The notes beneath the pieces are model-generated. The model saw only the letters and a program-made list of their open reading frames with translations. It searched no databases and was not told the DNA's origin. From positions 1,233-65,232 of the forward strand of contig JBNLGQ010000042.1 of assembly GCA_050306135.1 (NCBI GenBank): a DNA stretch of 64,000 nucleotides, read 5' to 3'. The translations under genes were made by a program, and so were the position numbers. The DNA comes from Gammaproteobacteria bacterium. Its GTDB lineage: Bacteria > Pseudomonadota > Gammaproteobacteria > GCA-001735895. This document shows positions 17,521 to 42,235 of the stretch, piece after piece (within the stretch, counting starts at the first letter, position 1; each line of letters opens with the position of its first letter).

Positions 17521-17760
17521 ACTGGATTACTGTGAAAATTATTGATCGAATTCTTTGTAACCTATATTAGAGTAAACAGGATATAACTATTAAGCTCATG
17601 AAAAAGAACTGATCAAAGCATTTTTTGCTATCAACATAATATCTCCGAAGAGATTATATTGATAATTACCATGTATTATATTTCTCATTCATATTGTGAA
17701 TGATAGTAATTAATAATGCATGAAAATTTGAAAACATAATGTCCCAAATTCCATCTTACC

Positions 17761-33082: not shown

Positions 33083-35074
33083 TTAAGAATTTAAATCAGC
33101 TTTGGTATCTTCACTATCTGACCCAGGAATGGTTTTGGGTACATTACTGGCACCGCCCATGAGCTTTTCCATCAAAGCCTGAACAATCGGACTTTTCTCG
33201 ATAAAACCGTTCACTGCATTTCCGGCACCCATGCCTTTGGCAAGCTTGTCGAAGTAATCGCCCTGGCCACCGACGATATCGATATTTGCATTTTTAAGCG
33301 CAGCAGCCAGTACATCTGCCTGATCTCCTGCAATTTCTTTATTGGCTTCGATAGAGGCCATAACTTCCTGTAGATGAACATCAAGATTAAGGCGGAATTC
33401 TTCGAACTCACGAGACTCTTTATTCATATTGTTCATTGCGGCAAATTTTTCTACCAGAGCGTCGGCTTCAGCCTTACCTTTTTCGCGTAAAACTTCAGCA
33501 TGACTCATTCCGATTTCCTTATTAGCTACGGCTTCAGCTTTGCCCAGTTCCTCATTACCGCGGGCTTCTGCAGTTAATTTCTCTTCCAGTACTCGGGCTT
33601 CTGCAAGACCTGCTTTTTCGGATGAAATAGCTTTCGCTTCCTGAACATGCGCTTCGGCAATGCCTTCCTTCTCAGTGGCATCCGCTTTCGCTTCCATGAC
33701 TCGAGCTTCTGCCAACCCTTTAGCAGCAGCGGTTGCCTGCGCACCTTCAGCTAATTTCTTCTCAGCTTCAGATTTTTTCGATGCAGCTTCTAATTCGGCC
33801 TGTGCCATTACATTAATTTCACGGGCTTTATGTGTTGCTTTCTTTTCATCCGCTTCTGCTCGCATCACAGTATGTACCAGTTCTTCCTGAGCGGACGCCT
33901 CGGCTGCTAGCACCAGCACCTGTTTATTACGGTCTGCTTCAGAAACTTCTTTAACTTCTTTAATACGCTCTTCTTCTTCGGTTACTTTCTTTTCAACCGC
34001 GATTCTTTCACTGATGGTCTGCGCAATGACTTTCTTTTCTTCTTCAAGTGCCTTGTCTTTTTCAATAATGGCTAATTCAACTTCGCGATGTCGATTAACC
34101 TCTTCCATTTTCTGCGCCCGGATGACCTTTTCCTTTTCGATCACAACGGCACGTTCGCGGTTTTGTTCTGCTATCTCGACCTGACGAAGTTTGACCTGAT
34201 TACGAATTTCGAGTTGCTCATTGGTTTCGATGGTAGCCTGATCCGCTTTAAGACGCTCTTCTTCCTGAACCTTTTTGGTTTCTGCAGCTTCACGCGCCTG
34301 TACAGTTTCTATTTCACGTTTCTGCTTTGACTCAGCATCGACCTGCTGACGCTCTAAAGCCAGCATGGCTTCGCGGGTTTCAACATTCTTTTTGGTAATG
34401 GCGAGGGTTTCATCTTTTTCCAGACGGTTAGTCTGGACATTCTGGATAGCGGTGATTTCAGTGATTCTACGAATACCTTCTGAATCAAGAATATTAGTGG
34501 GATCGAGCTGGGACTTCGGTGTTTGTTCCAGATAATCAATTGCAACGTCTTCTAATACATAGCCATTCAGATCATCACCAATCACCTCGATAATTTTCTC
34601 CCTGAACTTGATTCTGTTTTCAAACAGGTCAAGAAATACCATGTTTTTACCCACGGTCTTTAATGCCTCAGAAAACTTGGCTCCGAATAATTCGTCTACC
34701 GCATCTTTATCTGACGCCCGGTCTACACCAATCGATTTGGCAACTCGAAGCACATCTTCTCTGGTTTCGTTCACTCTCAGGTAAAACGCCACGATAATAT
34801 CTGCACGAAGATTATCCTGACAAATCAGGCCATCTTTCCCTCTACGGTCAATTTCCAGGGTAATGAGAGAAATCTTCATGACTTCCATCTTGTGGATAAC
34901 CGGCCACACAAGACCACCTGTAAAATGCACCTTGGGCTTTGATGACATATCGTTGACGATTAATGCGTATCCCTGAGGTACTTTTTTATAAAAGGCACTG
35001 AAAATCATCGCTAAAGCGACTATAGCGATTAAGATAATGCCGCCGTAAGTTAATATTGGTAATAGTAATTCCAT
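33083..35074 (-). CDS. yqiK: Flotillin-like SPFH/Band-7 protein (YqiK family) with long C-terminal Ala/Glu-rich coiled-coil repeats
   Basis: N-terminal TM anchor followed by an SPFH/PHB domain. The C-terminus has tandem EA repeats (LAEARVMEAKA... GLAEARVLEEK). Sits immediately downstream of an NfeD-like yqiJ homologue, as in the E. coli yqiJK operon. Confidence 0.75.
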   Translation of the reverse strand: MELLLPILTYGGIILIAIVALAMIFSAFYKKVPQGYALIVNDMSSKPKVHFTGGLVWPVIHKMEVMKISLITLEIDRRGKDGLICQDNLRADIIVAFYLRVNETREDVLRVAKSIGVDRASDKDAVDELFGAKFSEALKTVGKNMVFLDLFENRIKFREKIIEVIGDDLNGYVLEDVAIDYLEQTPKSQLDPTNILDSEGIRRITEITAIQNVQTNRLEKDETLAITKKNVETREAMLALERQQVDAESKQKREIETVQAREAAETKKVQEEERLKADQATIETNEQLEIRNQVKLRQVEIAEQNRERAVVIEKEKVIRAQKMEEVNRHREVELAIIEKDKALEEEKKVIAQTISERIAVEKKVTEEEERIKEVKEVSEADRNKQVLVLAAEASAQEELVHTVMRAEADEKKATHKAREINVMAQAELEAASKKSEAEKKLAEGAQATAAAKGLAEARVMEAKADATEKEGIAEAHVQEAKAISSEKAGLAEARVLEEKLTAEARGNEELGKAEAVANKEIGMSHAEVLREKGKAEADALVEKFAAMNNMNKESREFEEFRLNLDVHLQEVMASIEANKEIAGDQADVLAAALKNANIDIVGGQGDYFDKLAKGMGAGNAVNGFIEKSPIVQALMEKLMGGASNVPKTIPGSDSEDTKADLNS

Positions 35075-35141: not shown

Positions 35142-35810
35142 TTAATCTAAATGTTGTTTAAAATCTGCTTCACTAACCACGTTAAAAACCTGTTTCTCTT
35201 TATTGTGTTCAATCACTACTACCCTGTCTCCGGTGTTAAAGGTCTGATCCCCCACTGCCCTGACTTTCACAATCAGACTCGCTCCTTCAAGCTGACATTC
35301 TGCTTCACCAAAATCTGCATCCGCGCGGCTACTTCTAATACGACAGGTCGCCCCTAACAAAGACTTTGATATAGGCGCCTGGTTTACTTTTCTAAACAAT
35401 CCTTTAAGTGGTTTTATCATGGTTGCTGTAACTGGAATTGAAACCAAAAAACTCACGATGGCTACAGCAATATTTATCGCAACCTGAACCAGTGAAATAA
35501 ACTGCGGAAAAGTCGGGATAAGAAGAATAAGGAAGTAGCAGATAATCCATGCGTTGAGTACTAACAGGCTGATCACGATAGTGATCGGTACACCTGTTAA
35601 ACCCAAAGTGGTCAATAGCCCTGCAATACCACCTATTTCAGAAATATCACCATCCAGCTCCAGATCCATATCGATATCTACACCAACATCAAATGCATCC
35701 ATGTCAAAAGTCCCGGTAAACGCTAGCAGCCAATATCCAACAACTACCACCAGTAAGGTGGTGTAAATCACTGTTGGAAAACTGCTTATATTGACTAGAA
35801 AACCATCCAT
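35142..35810 (-). CDS. yqiJ: NfeD-like inner-membrane protein (YqiJ/DUF1449 family) with C-terminal OB-fold
   Basis: Three TM helices. An acidic loop (DMDAFDVGVDIDMDLELDGD) and a C-terminal beta-rich segment are typical of NfeD partners of SPFH proteins. Confidence 0.65.
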   Translation of the reverse strand: MDGFLVNISSFPTVIYTTLLVVVVGYWLLAFTGTFDMDAFDVGVDIDMDLELDGDISEIGGIAGLLTTLGLTGVPITIVISLLVLNAWIICYFLILLIPTFPQFISLVQVAINIAVAIVSFLVSIPVTATMIKPLKGLFRKVNQAPISKSLLGATCRIRSSRADADFGEAECQLEGASLIVKVRAVGDQTFNTGDRVVVIEHNKEKQVFNVVSEADFKQHLD

Positions 35811-35812
35811 TT

Positions 35813-36385
35813 CTAATTTCCTCGAATTATTTTACGCATTGTTTTATATTTCCTACCTGCCCATAGCCAGGCACAAAAAACACCAGATATGAATCCAAAT
35901 ATATGTCCTTCAAAACTAATCCCTGGGCGAAAGTCAAACAGAGTGAAGACCGCACCGCTATAAATTATCAGGGTGATAACTGCAATCGCAATATTTTTAA
36001 AACTACGATTAAAATACGCATTACTGATCAGATATCCCCAATACCCCATAACTAACCCGGAAGCACCCGCGTGTAACCCATCTCTTGCAAAAATCCACAC
36101 CAGTGACCCGGTGAATAGCATGATTAAAAATGTAACACGAGGCAACTTATTGAGCGAACTGACAAAAAAACCAAGAACCAGCAGCGGTATGGTATTGGAT
36201 AACAAATGCCCAATACTGTTGTGCAGAAAGTGCATGGTGATTATGCCGTATAAACTACCCACTTCTCTAGGGCGTAGTGCATAATGATTTAAGCCATGAC
36301 TTAAAAGCAGATTCACTATTTCTATACCCCATAATAAGACTATATAAATTAGTAATAATTTATAGTCCTTCATTGCCTTTCGCAT
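35813..36385 (-). CDS. Rhomboid family intramembrane serine protease
   Basis: Six TM helices, a catalytic GxSG (HAGASGLVMGY) and a TM6 His motif (HIFGFISG). Lies 2 nt from yqiJ. Confidence 0.75.
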   Translation of the reverse strand: MRKAMKDYKLLLIYIVLLWGIEIVNLLLSHGLNHYALRPREVGSLYGIITMHFLHNSIGHLLSNTIPLLVLGFFVSSLNKLPRVTFLIMLFTGSLVWIFARDGLHAGASGLVMGYWGYLISNAYFNRSFKNIAIAVITLIIYSGAVFTLFDFRPGISFEGHIFGFISGVFCAWLWAGRKYKTMRKIIRGN

Positions 36386-36389
36386 TAGA

Positions 36390-36719
36390 CTATTGCTTTT
36401 CCTCTTTCATTACGTTGGCAATAATCTCTTTTGCTGCCTGCTCTTTAATAGCCAGTTTATCCTCTGGATCGAGTTTATAAATATTAGCTAAAATCTCATA
36501 ATCTTTAGCTGTCAATGATATGGTCAACCTGGGTCGAACCGGCTTTTTCCTCGGCAAACCCAAAATTTCACGCATTTGGTCCGATGGTGACAAACCATTT
36601 TGGCTAGCCATTAACTTTAGCTTTTTTTGCGCTTCGGTTGAAATATCGAAAGCGACCTGGGTTGCCTTGACTGCTTTCTTTTCATTTTCCCAGCGTTCGG
36701 GTTTACCTTTTTTCATCAA
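36390..36719 (-). CDS. Small DNA-binding-like protein with two tandem ribbon-helix-helix (CopG/Arc/MetJ-type) repeats
   Basis: Two repeats follow a beta-strand/helix/helix pattern: VAFDISTEAQKKLKLMASQNGLSPSDQMREILGL and RLTISLTAKDYEILANIYKLDPEDKLAIKEQAAKEII. The family assignment is inferred from pattern only. Confidence 0.45.
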   Translation of the reverse strand: MMKKGKPERWENEKKAVKATQVAFDISTEAQKKLKLMASQNGLSPSDQMREILGLPRKKPVRPRLTISLTAKDYEILANIYKLDPEDKLAIKEQAAKEIIANVMKEEKQ

Positions 36720-36741
36720 CTATCCCCGTACCTGCTCAGGT

Positions 36742-37428
36742 TTAACTTTTCGCTTTTAACCGTGCTAGAACATCTTCCGCCGAATGCTTTTCATTTTTTA
36801 TACCAGCAGCTTTCAGCTTATTATCCAGCTCATCACCACCAAGTTCCTTGCGCAGTTGAATGCCAGCATTGAGCTTATCCTGTTCAGATTGTTGCTTCTG
36901 TTTAATTCTTTCTAACGATTCACGAGCAGAACCGATAGCGCTATCATTGGCTGTGACAGTTTGAGTAACCGATTTAGTAGCCTGTTGAACTGACTCTCTA
37001 GCCTTGGCCATTGCCAGCTCTCTTTCATGCTCGGCGATAATTTTTTCGGCTTCCTGTATCTGAGACTTCAATATCGATACATTCTGATCATAAGTGGCAA
37101 GTTCATTACTCACTTCCTCAGCAGAAGCTTCCAGCTTAGCAATCTTACCAGCAACTTCTAAAGCAAGCGCTTCATCCGATTTTTCCAGGGCTTTAACTGC
37201 ATAGCCTTCATTTTCGGTTATCTTTTCCATGATGTCTGCCAGTTTTCTTTCAGTAGCCATCTTCTTTGCCACTATTTCAGTCAAGCCTTCTTTAGCTTCG
37301 GCAAGACTGGCTTTTGAATCTTCGATTTCCTGTTCAAAAATCCTCATCGCCTGTGTATCGACAATGGCTTCGCCCAGTTCTCTGGCTCCACCGCGTAAAG
37401 ATGTTAATAATTTTTTCATCACGTTCAT
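36742..37428 (-). CDS. PspA/IM30 family protein (YjfJ-like; bacterial ESCRT-III superfamily)
   Basis: 228-aa all-helical protein with the PspA-like N-terminal amphipathic helix and coiled-coil hairpin (LGEAIVDTQAMRIFEQEIEDSKASLAEAKEGLTEIVAKK...). Confidence 0.8.
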   Translation of the reverse strand: MNVMKKLLTSLRGGARELGEAIVDTQAMRIFEQEIEDSKASLAEAKEGLTEIVAKKMATERKLADIMEKITENEGYAVKALEKSDEALALEVAGKIAKLEASAEEVSNELATYDQNVSILKSQIQEAEKIIAEHERELAMAKARESVQQATKSVTQTVTANDSAIGSARESLERIKQKQQSEQDKLNAGIQLRKELGGDELDNKLKAAGIKNEKHSAEDVLARLKAKS

Positions 37429-37468
37429 TTCTTTCTTCCTCTTAATATTAAATCCAGATAAGTATTGA

Positions 37469-37876
37469 TTACTTAATGTAATCTTCTAAGGCCTGCAGTG
37501 TATCTATTGAGTTGGCTGCCAATGTAATCAATTCCTGGCAGATGCTTTCATTATTAGACTCACGATCAAGCGCTCCAAATATGGTGTAATAATCATCCAC
37601 CAGAGCAAACGCACTCAATGGCATGGGTACATTCAGCTCCAGTAGATATTGATTTAATTCAGCCTCCATTTCCGAATGAATCTCCTGTTTGGTGAATAGA
37701 TAAGAAATACATAATATTTGAGTTTCAGTCACGGTAATGAAGATCGGAATTTCCTCAAGCCCACTGACCTCAACCCTTAACACCTCCTGTCCACTATTCA
37801 TCGGTAAACAATTAAACCGATAACCCTTAAATTCACAGTCTGACAAATGTTTAGACAAATCTTGCAATACACTCAT
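37469..37876 (-). CDS. YjfI-like DUF2170 protein
   Basis: 135-aa protein whose C-terminal region (DDYYTIFGALDRESNNESICQELITLAANSIDTLQALEDY) resembles what I recall of E. coli YjfI, the gene upstream of the PspA-like yjfJ. This comparison is from memory and unverified. It is the first gene of the operon, with an AAGGAG RBS at 37881-37886. Confidence 0.55.
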   Translation of the reverse strand: MSVLQDLSKHLSDCEFKGYRFNCLPMNSGQEVLRVEVSGLEEIPIFITVTETQILCISYLFTKQEIHSEMEAELNQYLLELNVPMPLSAFALVDDYYTIFGALDRESNNESICQELITLAANSIDTLQALEDYIK

Positions 37877-37890
37877 GATAACTCCTTGCT

Positions 37891-37935
37891 TGACATATTA
37901 TGTCACTAAAGTAGCGCTCTCGACATAATATGTCA
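37891..37935. promoter_or_regulatory. Two palindromic operator-like sites TGACATA-t-TATGTCA (37891-37905) and GACATA-a-TATGTC (37922-37934), centres 30 bp apart
   Basis: Read directly. Both are perfect 6-7 bp inverted repeats with a 1-nt centre. They lie 5 nt upstream of the RBS of the first operon gene, inside the 300-bp divergent intergenic region. Confidence 0.55.
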
Positions 37936-38175
37936 AGAATAATTTTGTGAATATTCCAGATAATTTCAGGTTTAGTCATTTTCGATAATCTGGTCAAACA
38001 TTAGAGTATAGACAAGCTACCTGAAAGCAGGTATTAAACAATCAACTGATTGATATCAAGAATGCATAAAATCATCATGAAGCACTTTATATGTAACTAT
38101 TGACTACCACGTTATTTGCACCGGTAACATAATCGATTGTAAGCTCAAATCAAATTAACTCGCTCAAATTATCAG

Positions 38176-39084
38176 ATGAAGGAACTAATAGAAAAAAGCA
38201 TAGAGACTGTTCGCTCGGCAAGCGATAAAGCCAGCAATGAAATCTCTGCAGGGTTTATTCTCATAAAGGAAAAGATTAACGGACTACCGATATTTGTATC
38301 ATCTGAGACATCTAATAAATACAAGAACATAAAGTATGATGAAAAACACTATTTCGTGATCCCTTATCACCTTTCAGAGCATAAATTCGCACTGCATACG
38401 ATGAGATGCCTGCCTGAATCAGTCCCTGAAATAAATAATCTCCCCAAAAGAAGAGTGTTTCATTTTGCTAACGAACATTCTGAGGCTATGCTCAAGGAGT
38501 ATATGCGACAAAGCGCAATTGATATTGTGCTTGATGAGAGAAAAGACAATCTAAACAGCCTTCAATCCCTGGCAAACGAAATTGATTCTCTGGACAAAAA
38601 ATTAACCTACGGGATGCTGCTGGTTGGCGGTTTAACCGCTATAGCAAATCCACTGGTAGGTGCAGGTATAGCCGCAAAGGCATTACTTCCAGGTGTAGGA
38701 GGCTTGCTGAATAAATATGGATTACGTCCTACCGGTGAAAAACTTAGCAAATATCAACTCGATAAATCTATCAGGGAAGCAGAAGATTCTGTTAACAAGG
38801 AGTTTGAGAATTCAAATACCCTAAAAGTAGTAAACCCGATATTACAGGAACTAGAGCTAGCGCTGCGTACCACTGAAACCGAGCACGACCCTTTGCTTGA
38901 TCCGAATTTATCGAATGGCAGTATCCCTGAGCTTAGCGACGAAAGATGGCGAACATTAACAGAAGTTGCCATCTGCAATGTATATAAAGACGTTTATGAA
39001 AACCCTGACTTGCATCAGAAAGCAAACCTCGGCCCTGAGGATATACGGTGGTTAAAAGTATTGTTCGAAGTGAACAAGAGCTAA
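38176..39084 (+). CDS. Hypothetical protein with central glycine-zipper hydrophobic segment
   Basis: No recognisable family. Hydrophobic segment GMLLVGGLTAIANPLVGAGIAAKALLPGVGGLL. The gene is AT-rich (roughly mid-30s % GC by eye). Confidence 0.5.
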   Translation: MKELIEKSIETVRSASDKASNEISAGFILIKEKINGLPIFVSSETSNKYKNIKYDEKHYFVIPYHLSEHKFALHTMRCLPESVPEINNLPKRRVFHFANEHSEAMLKEYMRQSAIDIVLDERKDNLNSLQSLANEIDSLDKKLTYGMLLVGGLTAIANPLVGAGIAAKALLPGVGGLLNKYGLRPTGEKLSKYQLDKSIREAEDSVNKEFENSNTLKVVNPILQELELALRTTETEHDPLLDPNLSNGSIPELSDERWRTLTEVAICNVYKDVYENPDLHQKANLGPEDIRWLKVLFEVNKS

Positions 39085-39158: not shown

Positions 39159-39695
39159 ATGCACTGTCCGAAATGTAAAACGATTATTCTTAAGCCAACC
39201 AAACTAGATGACAGCCTGCCCGTATTTGGCTGCCCTGAGTGTGGTGGATCACTGTTATCTCTTCTCTATTATAGAGATTGGGCGGAAAGAGTTACCCTCG
39301 ATTCTTCTGATTTTGAATCTAGTAGTGAGGTAGTAGAAGATGCTGACACCAAAACTTCTTTGAGCTGTCCTAAGTGCAGCCGAATTATGACAAAGTACTC
39401 CATATCTGGATCGATACATAGTCGTCTAGATCTGTGTGGCAATTGTGACGAGGCCTGGCTTGATGGTGGGGAATGGCAATTGCTTAAATCTCTGGAAATG
39501 GCAAACAGGTTACCAAAAATTTTCACCGAACAGTGGCAGCAAAAGGTTCGAAGCGAAAAAATGGCATTGAGTAAGATCGAACGCCTGAAAAAAGTTATTG
39601 GTGAAATTGATACTGAGAAAGCCGTAGAAATAAAGAAATGGATTAATGAGCACGCTAATAAGGCTAGCATTATTCAATTCATAGGTTCTGATTAG
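39159..39695 (+). CDS. Tandem TFIIB-type zinc-ribbon protein (zf-TFIIB/PF13453-like) with C-terminal coiled coil
   Basis: Two CxxC...CxxC ribbons (CPKC...CPEC; CPKC...CGNC). The second is followed by the family-typical WLDGGEW motif. Confidence 0.55.
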   Translation: MHCPKCKTIILKPTKLDDSLPVFGCPECGGSLLSLLYYRDWAERVTLDSSDFESSSEVVEDADTKTSLSCPKCSRIMTKYSISGSIHSRLDLCGNCDEAWLDGGEWQLLKSLEMANRLPKIFTEQWQQKVRSEKMALSKIERLKKVIGEIDTEKAVEIKKWINEHANKASIIQFIGSD

Positions 39696-40171: not shown

Positions 40172-40486
40172 TCAATCTATAGCTGCGTATACCTGGTCAT
40201 TATCGATCTTGCTAGGGTATGTCTGTACATCGCTCTCCAGCGGTGCACACAGTGCCTTACCCGTTTTGATACAAAACTTGCCCTGGTGCAGAGGGCATTC
40301 AATCTGCCCGTCTTCGACAAAGCCATCACTTAGTCTGGCCAGACCATGGGTGCAGATATTATCCGTCACATACACCTCGCCTTGTATACTGTAGATGGCC
40401 AGATCTTTTCCATCTACTACAACACCGATAACGTCATCATCTATAAGCTCATTGACGCTAACAATTGTTTTCCATTGATCTCCCAT
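40172..40486 (-). CDS. Rieske-type [2Fe-2S] ferredoxin component of the ring-hydroxylating oxygenase system (NagAb-like)
   Basis: 104 aa with CTHG...CPLHQGKF Rieske ligands. Confidence 0.8.
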   Translation of the reverse strand: MGDQWKTIVSVNELIDDDVIGVVVDGKDLAIYSIQGEVYVTDNICTHGLARLSDGFVEDGQIECPLHQGKFCIKTGKALCAPLESDVQTYPSKIDNDQVYAAID

Positions 40487-40494
40487 TACTCACC

Positions 40495-40968
40495 TCACAC
40501 AGGATATATGACAGAATTAGGCACCATTTCGCTATCGTATACGGCTCTACGGCTTTTAAATTTCAAACCCTGTTCTGTCCTTTGAACTTCATCAATATAG
40601 CGACCTGCATTAAATACCGTCGTCATACCATCGTATTTGGTGCGCATAACAGAATAATTGGCTTCAGAATATATGACATCACCTTCCACTTTGATCACAT
40701 GCGGAGCACCGACAATGTGGCGTTGATAATAGGGGTCATAGAAAAGGGTTTCCTTGATACCATACACGCGGTCTACCAGCATTTCCCTGCTTTCAAGATC
40801 CAGCAGGCCCAGCGGCATACCTCGTTCATAGTTCTCACGCGGTTGTAGGCTATACACACAATCCTCAGTGAAAAATTCAGGCCACTCGTCCCAGTTATCT
40901 GAATCCACAACCAGAGAGTATTCGGCATAAAGGTTTAATAGTTCGTAATAGGTTTCGAAATTGATCAT
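40495..40968 (-). CDS. Ring-hydroxylating oxygenase small (beta) subunit (NagH-like)
   Basis: NTF2/SnoaL-like beta-subunit fold. The start is at the ATG at 40968 (MINFETYY) with a GGAGGT RBS, 4 nt after the alpha-subunit stop. Confidence 0.8.
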
Positions 40969-40972
40969 AGTC

Positions 40973-42235
40973 TTATACCTCCATCGTCTTGCGCCAGTAG
41001 TTGTACATGCCACGTATCAGGGTTTCAGTAACCATGTGCTCGCTATCTGCGATATCAGTGCCACCCATCTCAACAAGCGTACGATGTGATGGTTTTGTCT
41101 CAAAACCTTCCTGTGAGAACTCGATGACTTCACCGTCATCGGCCGATACGAATCCTGCAGGACCAAACAGATTGGCCTGTATTAAACGACGTTTCACCAT
41201 CTCTTCATCATCATCTTCATAACAGAAATGCGTCCAGACAAAATCAAAGCTATCTTTACCATTGGGCTGTATGTGTCGGGTAGAGACACTATTCACCTGT
41301 TGCTGGAAAATGACTGAAGGGAAAACCGTTGTCATTACAGCCGTTGGACCGCCCCACCAGGACTCCTGAACGATATCCAGCAGTCGGTTATCGTTAACCT
41401 TCATGTCTTCCTTGAAGCTTTCAATACCATTGACCACCTCGTCTACCTTACCGCCCTTGCCTCTTGTAGAGATCATTGCCGCATGACGAAACTTATCATC
41501 CATACGTAATTGCGATTCATTGTCCGCACGCCACAGGCCAAAGGTTACAAACCAGGTATGTAACAGTCCGGGATGGTAAGGATCTTTGATATTTTCCTGC
41601 ATCAGCTTCCAGTTACCGGGAATACGTTGTTTGCGATAGCCGAGGATCTTTAGCTTTCGACCATCAAAGGTACGATCAAAATACTTTAATATTTCTGGGC
41701 CTAAAAAATCTTCTAAAGACTCTACATTATGATCAAAGGAAGCAAACACCACGCCATTGCGTATAGCAACCTTGAGCTTTGTTAAACCGTGATCCTTTGG
41801 GTGAAAATCCTTTGGCATACCACCATTGACCTTACCGTCTTTCTTGACCCCACGTAAAAATGGTACGCCCTGTAAATCGCCATTATGTGCATAATTCCAC
41901 TGGTGATAAGGACAGACAAAATCCTTGCGATTGCCATGTCTCTCACGGCAAAAGCGCATACCACGATGTGCACAAACGTTTTCTACAACAAAAATTTCAT
42001 CATCCTTTCCACGCGTCATAATAACGGAACGCTCACCCACAAATGTGCGTTTGAAGTCTCCGTGTTCGGGGATCTCGGCTTCTAAGCCGACATAGCACCA
42101 GTGGTTTGAATAAAAAAAACGTTCTAACTCTTTCTGGTAAAGATCTTGCGAGGTATAAGCCCAGAAAGGGATACGACTAGTGCCCTGTTGTTTCCACTTT
42201 TCTTCTACGGGAAAAGCATTTGATGCTTCATTCAT
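40973..42235 (-). CDS. Ring-hydroxylating oxygenase large (alpha) subunit, salicylate-5-hydroxylase/anthranilate-dioxygenase-like (NagG/AndAc family)
   Basis: Rieske CAHRG...CPYHQWNY and catalytic iron motif DPYHPGLLH. 420 aa. Confidence 0.8.

Follow-up and report, generated by a model that had tools for sequence, protein, structure and literature searches.

What regulates an operon that encodes a PspA-family protein together with membrane partners, and is the regulator one of the operon's own products? The question was raised by a 64-kb stretch of gammaproteobacterial DNA (the window; part of contig JBNLGQ010000042.1), in which two palindromes stand just ahead of a minus-strand gene cluster whose third gene encodes a small protein of 108-109 amino acids (aa). 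An earlier note on this DNA had proposed an autoregulatory circuit, in which a protein made of two ribbon-helix-helix (RHH) repeats binds one palindrome per chain, with two chains cooperating on the same DNA face three helical turns apart, and represses or attenuates its own operon until membrane stress relieves it. Our analysis supports a modified form of that circuit. With a probability of roughly 0.78, sequence comparison and structural models identify the 108/109-aa protein as the putative binder, a sequence-specific RHH repressor dedicated to a membrane-maintenance regulon. The protein would bind the inverted repeat GACAT-AWT-ATGTC at two sites, called O1 and O2 here, and with O1 on the -35 box and O2 over the transcription start, the bound protein would shut out sigma-70 RNA polymerase. 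The repressor gene being third in the operon that it would repress, the result would be a negative autoregulatory loop.

The two palindromes, TGACATA-t-TATGTCA (37891-37905) and GACATA-a-TATGTC (37922-37934), both hold GACATAWTATGTC, and their centres, at 37898 and 37928, are 30 bp apart, which reproduces the placement given in the earlier note. The window has no other exact match to GACATANTATGTC; at up to 2 mismatches, the sole further match is at 17633. Base composition predicts 0.0033 exact copies per 64 kb, and the probability of a second copy within 40 bp of the first is ~4e-6. Two exact 13-mers 30 bp apart are therefore not explained by chance.

Both palindromes precede the ribosome binding site (RBS) AAGGAG (37882-37887, minus strand) and the ATG (37876) of the first gene, as had been proposed, and they overlap the core promoter of the candidate regulator's own operon. 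The distal one, putative operator O1 (37922-37936, minus strand), reads TTGACATATTATGTC on the coding strand and includes a consensus -35 box, TTGACA (37931-37936). A candidate -10 hexamer, TACTTT (37908-37913, minus strand), follows TTGACA at a distance of 17 nt; its match to TATAAT is weak (3/6), and for that reason was absent from the output of a promoter scan. The proximal palindrome, putative operator O2 (37891-37905, minus strand), reads TGACATAATATGTCA, begins 2 nt past the -10 candidate and lies over the predicted transcription start. On the coding strand the whole leader is TTGACATATTATGTC - GAGAGCGC - TACTTT - AG - TGACATAATATGTCA - AGC - AAGGAG - TTATC - ATG.

The same geometry was found in related promoters. 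The distal site is TTGACAT, and so a consensus -35, in every genome locus for which the upstream sequence was printed, and a -10-like hexamer (NANNNT) follows 16-18 nt after TTGACA in 192 of 214 distinct related promoters (most commonly TAAATT, against TACTTT in the window). The proximal site then begins 0-13 nt past the -10 hexamer, over the expected start site. Where a promoter has a single site, that site stays on the -35 box. As occupancy of O1 on the -35 box and of O2 over the predicted start would exclude RNA polymerase, the protein most likely acts as a repressor and not as an activator. The positions of the sites on the -35 box and the predicted start thus point to repression of the operon, as suggested earlier, though not to the same-face phasing that had been attached to it.

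Are the palindromes kept where the small-protein gene is kept? Relatives of the 109-aa protein were found in 452 species of the genome collection. We compared the best 80 genome loci for gene order and, for sites, the 79 loci that had both the RHH and the DUF2170 genes (the latter being the first gene of the operon) and readable upstream DNA. The gene order DUF2170, PspA, sometimes one extra gene, then RHH is almost universal among the best 80. With up to 1 mismatch allowed, the 420 nt ahead of the DUF2170 gene contain one or more GACAT-N3-ATGTC sites in 79/79 loci and two or more in 71/79, against a chance expectation of about 1 locus in total (a uniform base-composition estimate, ~0.012 per 420-nt region). 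The proposal had been staked on conservation of the palindromes in orthologous loci, and conserved they are, across loci in which protein identity falls to 41% (RHH) and ~35% (DUF2170). Neither the DNA that separates the sites nor that which flanks them is conserved; the 12 non-central positions of each site are near-invariant and operator drift is confined to the central triplet. Taxa with both gene and site include Kangiellaceae, Colwellia, Thalassotalea, Shewanella, Pseudoalteromonas, Oceanimonas, Gallaecimonas, Reinekea, Cellvibrionaceae and some Betaproteobacteria. Further copies of the motif, whose existence elsewhere in the genome the earlier note had raised, were sought in 893 kb of related loci at up to 1 mismatch. 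All matches fell into three classes: within 300 nt upstream of DUF2170; a pair 318/354 nt upstream (locus L067); and a single site ~3.7-4.1 kb upstream.

The association also holds when read from motif to gene. Metagenome contigs were scanned for TTGACATAWTATGTC-N(10-26)-GACATAWTATGTC, and at least 120 loci matched. Among the matches listed, a DUF2170 gene lies less than 400 bp downstream in 101/120, and the RHH protein is encoded downstream in 53 of the 60 loci that have at least 2.7 kb of downstream sequence. None of the remaining 7/60 is ahead of a DUF2170 gene; hence, among these matches, there is no motif-bearing DUF2170 operon with enough downstream sequence that lacks the RHH gene. Two of the seven (L180 3442-3486 and L195 5605-5721) were rejected as false positives, being tandem repeats with periods of ~22 and ~34 bp on contigs without related genes. 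In the other five, and in some shorter matches, the site pair stands ahead of YidC/Oxa1-like insertases, small unannotated membrane proteins or an S10 peptidase. At one metagenome locus (L092 4341-4922), RHH and rhomboid genes follow directly on an operator pair, and neither DUF2170 nor PspA is encoded in the vicinity, an arrangement from which it follows that regulator and rhomboid can probably form a separate autoregulated unit.

Does the small protein have the fold expected of such a regulator? The open reading frame (ORF) described in the earlier note exists (36390-36719, minus strand), with TTG 36719 called as the start by the ORF finder to give 109 aa. The alternative ATG at 36716 is probably the true start, since homologues have MK as their first residues and this ATG is preceded, at a distance of 6 nt, by GGGGA; the protein would then have 108 aa. 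An AlphaFold2 model of the window protein (model 1; 32-sequence alignment) reached a predicted local distance difference test (pLDDT) score of 79.9, with 86-93 in the core, and a predicted template modelling (pTM) score of 0.68. It comprises two strand-helix-helix units (E20-23, H28-40, H45-53 and E66-69, H71-81, H88-104) joined by a linker of ~10 residues (54-63). As DSSP assigns only those two strands, they presumably pair with each other. The top Foldseek matches of model 1 in the PDB (TM-score ~0.5, E 0.6-3) are chains E, F and G of the F relaxosome (~105-120 residues), followed by AvtR and single-chain Arc; we take all of these to be single-chain tandem RHH proteins. The number and length of the relaxosome chains lead us to infer that they are three TraY molecules.

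A second model, of a 44%-identical family member (model 2; 86-sequence alignment, pLDDT 84.8, pTM 0.50), has the same four helices. Its halves superpose at 1.3-2.2 Å over 36-38 residues on protomers of FitA, Arc, NikA-N and MazE-mt10/Rv0298, with CopG lower in the list. The segments KATQVAFD and RPRL(T/S)(I/V)SL occupy the positions of the DNA-reading strands; the latter resembles the CopG N-terminus. Like the half-sites, these putative DNA-reading strands are invariant (Q-x-A-F-D and R-P-R-L-T/S-x-S-L). From the models we conclude that each half is RHH-like, and that the halves may pair within one chain, as in TraY, or between two chains. Of the two beta-strand/helix/helix repeats described previously, both are seen in model 1 and their four helices, without the strands, in model 2.

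Several observations weigh against the protein being an RHH repressor that acts at these sites. In model 2 no strands are assigned, the halves are unpaired and the pTM is 0.50. Foldseek E-values are weak (0.3-3). The Pfam FitA-like_RHH match on the first repeat is below threshold (E 0.006, 16.9 bits against a cut-off of 27) and is seen in just 6 of 32 family members, and no NCBIfam model matches the 109-aa protein. Searches with the profile and with both halves found no sequence relative in the PDB; the best match there, a homeodomain arm, was dismissed as spurious. The internal repeat is undetected at the sequence level, the hhalign comparison of the N-terminal with the C-terminal half not being significant. 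Protein and operator are both nearly invariant, and because of this there is no protein-operator covariation that would prove the pairing. Finally, the negative controls fit the proposal but all come from one clade, Enterobacteriaceae. These are the yjfIJKLMC operons of Escherichia coli, Citrobacter and Enterobacter, in which no RHH homologue was found and nothing nearer to the motif than 2-3 mismatches; the homologue search seeded with E. coli YjfI returned enterics only. DUF2170 proteins also led to loci of six more genera (Pseudoalteromonas, Oceanimonas, Gallaecimonas, Agaribacterium, Shewanella and a metagenome-assembled genome (MAG) of Moraxellaceae), which proved unusable as RHH-less DUF2170-PspA controls, all of them carrying the RHH gene and the site or sites.

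The indirect nature of the link between protein and DNA, and the weak sequence-level support for the RHH fold, leave some room for a different assignment, in which the palindromes serve an unlinked transcription factor and the 109-aa protein is otherwise employed, for example as a partner of PspA or DUF2170. We regard this as quite improbable. Gene and motif occur together in all 79 loci, in two proteobacterial classes, and both are absent from the enteric operons; at L092 the motif pair directly precedes the RHH-rhomboid genes where DUF2170 and PspA genes are missing; and no other DNA-binding protein was found to be conserved in these neighbourhoods, which makes the RHH-like protein the sole DNA-binding candidate that travels with the palindromes. 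Far less probable still, and close to negligible, is that the repeats need no dedicated regulator at all, acting instead in RNA, as a leader hairpin or attenuator, or as plain promoter elements. O2 would indeed be transcribed and can form a 6-bp hairpin, and O1 includes the -35 box. An RNA element was nevertheless rejected, given that the hairpin does not exceed shuffled sequence in stability (z -0.63) and an Rfam search gave no match; O1, moreover, lies upstream of the predicted start site. Plain promoter elements cannot explain the invariant arms of both palindromes, nor an identical O2 past the -10.

If the RHH-like protein is the binder, how many chains sit on each palindrome? The earlier note had favoured one single-chain molecule per palindrome, two of them cooperating on the same DNA face about three turns apart. 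The 30-bp spacing in the window suits this arrangement, as do the spacings of 30-32 bp in most Kangiellaceae relatives, and model 1 is an intramolecular pseudo-dimer. Across the 214 promoters, however, the centres of O1 and O2 are 27-39 bp apart. The spacings peak at 31-32 and 34-36 bp, and those of 34-36 bp (~3.4 turns), which form the largest class, put the sites on different faces. What is conserved is promoter geometry and not helical phase, and the 30 bp of the window is a local value rather than a conserved design feature. The symmetry of the sites also speaks against a single chain. Both sites are strictly two-fold symmetric and near-invariant at 12 of their 13 positions, but the protein's own beta-strands are unlike (TQVAFD and RLTISL), and an asymmetric ribbon gives no reason to keep a strict palindrome. 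In the solved F relaxosome, TraY is a monomer that carries the whole fold of an RHH dimer; a single chain places one ribbon in one major groove and covers ~10 bp, and three TraY molecules together cover ~30 bp (PMC12117103).

We therefore consider occupancy by one chain per palindrome improbable. With a two-fold symmetric site, an asymmetric ribbon of unlike strands and the ~10 bp covered by TraY, two chains per palindrome are likelier: the most likely arrangement is one chain per GACATA half-site, the two being related by the dyad, in analogy to Arc, CopG, MetJ and omega, which bind DNA as dimers of dimers. Each half-site would be read by one asymmetric ribbon of an N-strand and a C-strand, placing four chains on the promoter. 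This arrangement holds whether the halves pair within or between chains. The autoregulatory circuit is accordingly retained in its core, with at least one putative operator of a dedicated regulator in every one of the 79 loci and the gene lying within the operon, while phasing and one-chain occupancy are given up.

Which genes would the repressor control? In the window, six genes on the minus strand run from 37876 down to 33083 with intergenic gaps of 2-67 nt; with gaps this short, the cluster looks like a single operon. Gene 1 (37469-37876) encodes a DUF2170/YjfI-family protein of 135 aa (Pfam PF09938, E 7e-33), a family with a CesT/Tir-like chaperone fold (PMC11237479), and gene 2 (36742-37428) a YjfJ-like PspA/IM30-family protein of 228 aa (PF04012, E 2e-36). 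Gene 3 (36390-36719) is that of the proposed repressor, whose two RHH-like repeats were assigned from the AlphaFold2 models, the Foldseek matches and the sub-threshold Pfam match. It is followed by genes for a rhomboid-family intramembrane protease of 190 aa (gene 4, 35813-36385; PF01694, E 3e-18), a membrane protein of 222 aa (gene 5, 35142-35810) and an SPFH/Band-7 flotillin-like membrane protein of 663 aa with a long coiled coil (gene 6, 33083-35074; Band_7, PF01145, E 3e-10 over residues 1-220). Gene 5 matches neither a Pfam nor an NCBIfam model; it is conserved together with the flotillin-like gene and, judged from its location ahead of the SPFH gene, corresponds to the YqiJ/YuaF-type partner of an operon class in PMC11237479. 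The features of the CesT/Tir-PspA dyad class are present, namely DUF2170 followed by PspA_IM30, together with Band-7/flotillin and a small transmembrane (TM) partner, with synteny kept (PF09938, PF04012, PF01145). A near-identical contig (L002; 99-100% protein identity) comes from an uncultured gammaproteobacterial MAG, and the next relatives are Kangiellaceae.

Elsewhere the operator is found at further promoters. Where the membrane-protein/flotillin genes are divergent from DUF2170-PspA-RHH, four sites lie in the intergenic region, one pair per promoter (L017, L019-L022, L027 and L206). A single extra site 2.4-4.1 kb upstream of DUF2170 occurs in Colwellia/Thalassotalea-type loci, in Shewanella (L048 and L207) and in Moraxellaceae (L208); in about 29 loci, mostly of Colwellia, Thalassotalea and Shewanella, it is ~3.7-4.1 kb upstream. 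In the one such locus that was annotated (L026 400-412), the extra site overlaps the -35 region of a promoter for lipoprotein, DUF350 (8TM) and 7TM-spermine-synthase-like genes, and the gene calls in L207 and L208 are consistent with this layout.

The metagenome scan adds other candidates. At four loci (L084, L110, L139 and L144), an operator pair precedes a gene for a short (~216-223 aa) YidC/Oxa1-like insertase, with Pfam 60KD_IMP matches at E 1e-24 to 1e-26 in the last three; the L084 gene ends at the contig edge and was left unscanned. Gene position here suggests that the regulon takes in a membrane-protein insertase in some genomes. Operator pairs also stand ahead of small unannotated membrane proteins of 126-144 aa (L106 3176-3681, L121 480-950 and L107 410-900) and of a serine carboxypeptidase S10-like protein (L100 4346-6036); these proteins are possible further members of the regulon. 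In a Pseudoalteromonas locus, a further exact operator (L203 1977-1989), 5 kb away from the operon, precedes a DUF1353 gene by ~440 bp.

On the other side of the operon promoter in the window, a divergent ORF of 302 aa (38176-39084, plus strand) shares the 299-bp intergenic region; it has no Pfam or NCBIfam match and is kept only in the two closest relatives (L002 and L003). Beyond it, 1.3 kb from the operon and on the opposite strand to it, 39159-39695 (plus strand) encodes a 178-aa double zinc-ribbon protein (Pfam Zn_ribbon_TFIIB). This protein shows 36% identity (E 9e-36) to the product of an Agaribacterium gene (L206 8543-9091) that lies inside the operon there, between the RHH and rhomboid genes, and it probably functions as a partner in the system. 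Three adjoining ORFs at 40172-42235 (minus strand) have no relation to the finding; by reading alone, their translations resemble a Rieske ferredoxin and the two subunits, small and large, of a ring-hydroxylating oxygenase.

How does the proposed system compare with known ones? CopG of plasmid pMV158 is an RHH repressor, a homodimer of 45-aa chains, that controls plasmid copy number; two RHH dimers bind a 13-bp pseudo-symmetric element over the -35 of its own operon promoter. The likeness lies in an autorepressor on a 13-bp element over its own -35 box. Here, in contrast, a single chain, encoded on the chromosome, would carry both RHH units; each regulon has at least two operators, and the targets concern membrane maintenance. 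PDB sequence and Pfam searches detected no sequence similarity to CopG. F-plasmid TraY shares with the present protein two RHH units in one chain of ~110-130 aa, but it is a relaxosome accessory protein that acts on imperfect direct and inverted oriT sites; the structural match has a TM-score of ~0.5, intramolecular strand pairing is seen here in one of two models, and the 109-aa protein has neither sequence similarity to TraY nor a Pfam TraY match.

The gene itself had been noticed before. Ravi et al. 2024 (PMC11237479) defined the CesT/Tir(DUF2170)-PspA operon classes and noted an RHH transcription factor 'in some cases'. Their Shewanella oneidensis example, SO_3765, comprises lipoprotein, YjfL-TM, spermine-synthase-like, DUF2170, PspA, DUF4178 and RHH genes, an architecture that matches the Thalassotalea locus annotated here; the partly annotated Shewanella loci L048 and L207 likewise keep DUF2170-PspA-(one gene)-RHH. 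The RHH protein of SO_3765 very probably belongs to the same family as the 109-aa protein. That paper does not give the operator, the promoter architecture, the tandem-repeat nature of the protein, the regulon or the flotillin/rhomboid operon type of this window, and the first four of these appear to be new. The available text of a paper on the Pseudomonas aeruginosa bac operon proposes a sigma-54 promoter and makes no mention of an RHH protein ('ribbon' has zero occurrences in it). The literature searched, which was incomplete, yielded neither the operator sequence in a bacterial context nor an RHH regulator of PspA, and nothing on the expression of operons of the CesT/Tir-PspA dyad class, including that of this organism. 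PspA-family operon types each have their own local regulator and are induced by envelope stress, the regulators being PspF in E. coli, ClgR in actinobacteria and LiaRS in Firmicutes (PMC11237479). PspF is a sigma-54 enhancer-binding activator, ClgR a helix-turn-helix activator and LiaRS a two-component system, whereas here we have a putative RHH repressor of a sigma-70 promoter. From sequence and models, the pair is very probably a strongly conserved repressor and operator of an ordinary kind, an RHH autorepressor on a sigma-70 promoter.

What would release the repressor? Relief by membrane stress, as proposed before us, is a reasonable guess by analogy with these systems. A membrane-linked signal would lift the protein off the DNA, perhaps through the co-encoded DUF2170 chaperone and PspA. 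Ahead of the first strand, the protein has a conserved segment (W10, E13, A16) that is of low confidence in model 1 and helical in model 2; a contact of this segment with DNA, or with a partner (the CesT-like DUF2170 chaperone, for example), is speculation. Taking these elements together, one may picture the protein as the master switch of an unrecognised envelope-maintenance regulon in marine Gamma- and Betaproteobacteria, induced by partner switching, although we hold this fuller picture to be unlikely as a whole. The regulon would take in DUF2170-PspA, the membrane-protein/flotillin pair, the rhomboid, the lipoprotein/DUF350/spermine-synthase-like genes and, in some genomes, a short YidC-like insertase. 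Once PspA moved to damaged membrane, the DUF2170 chaperone would be freed, would capture the N-terminal W-x-x-E segment and would pull the repressor off DNA. This would mirror the logic of PspA and PspF, with a repressor in place of the activator.

PspA operons of the YjfI/YjfJ type occur widely, as do their flotillin partners, and the literature searched gave no regulator or inducing signal for them. With a repressor gene, a 13-bp operator that is near-invariant in two proteobacterial classes, and predicted targets, the system is directly testable. The operator can be used to find members of the regulon in any genome, and the promoter as a reporter for the inducing stress. If the proposal is true, removing one small gene would derepress the whole regulon, and the protein would be a chromosomal two-repeat RHH transcription factor, an architecture so far represented mainly by the plasmid protein TraY and a viral regulator.

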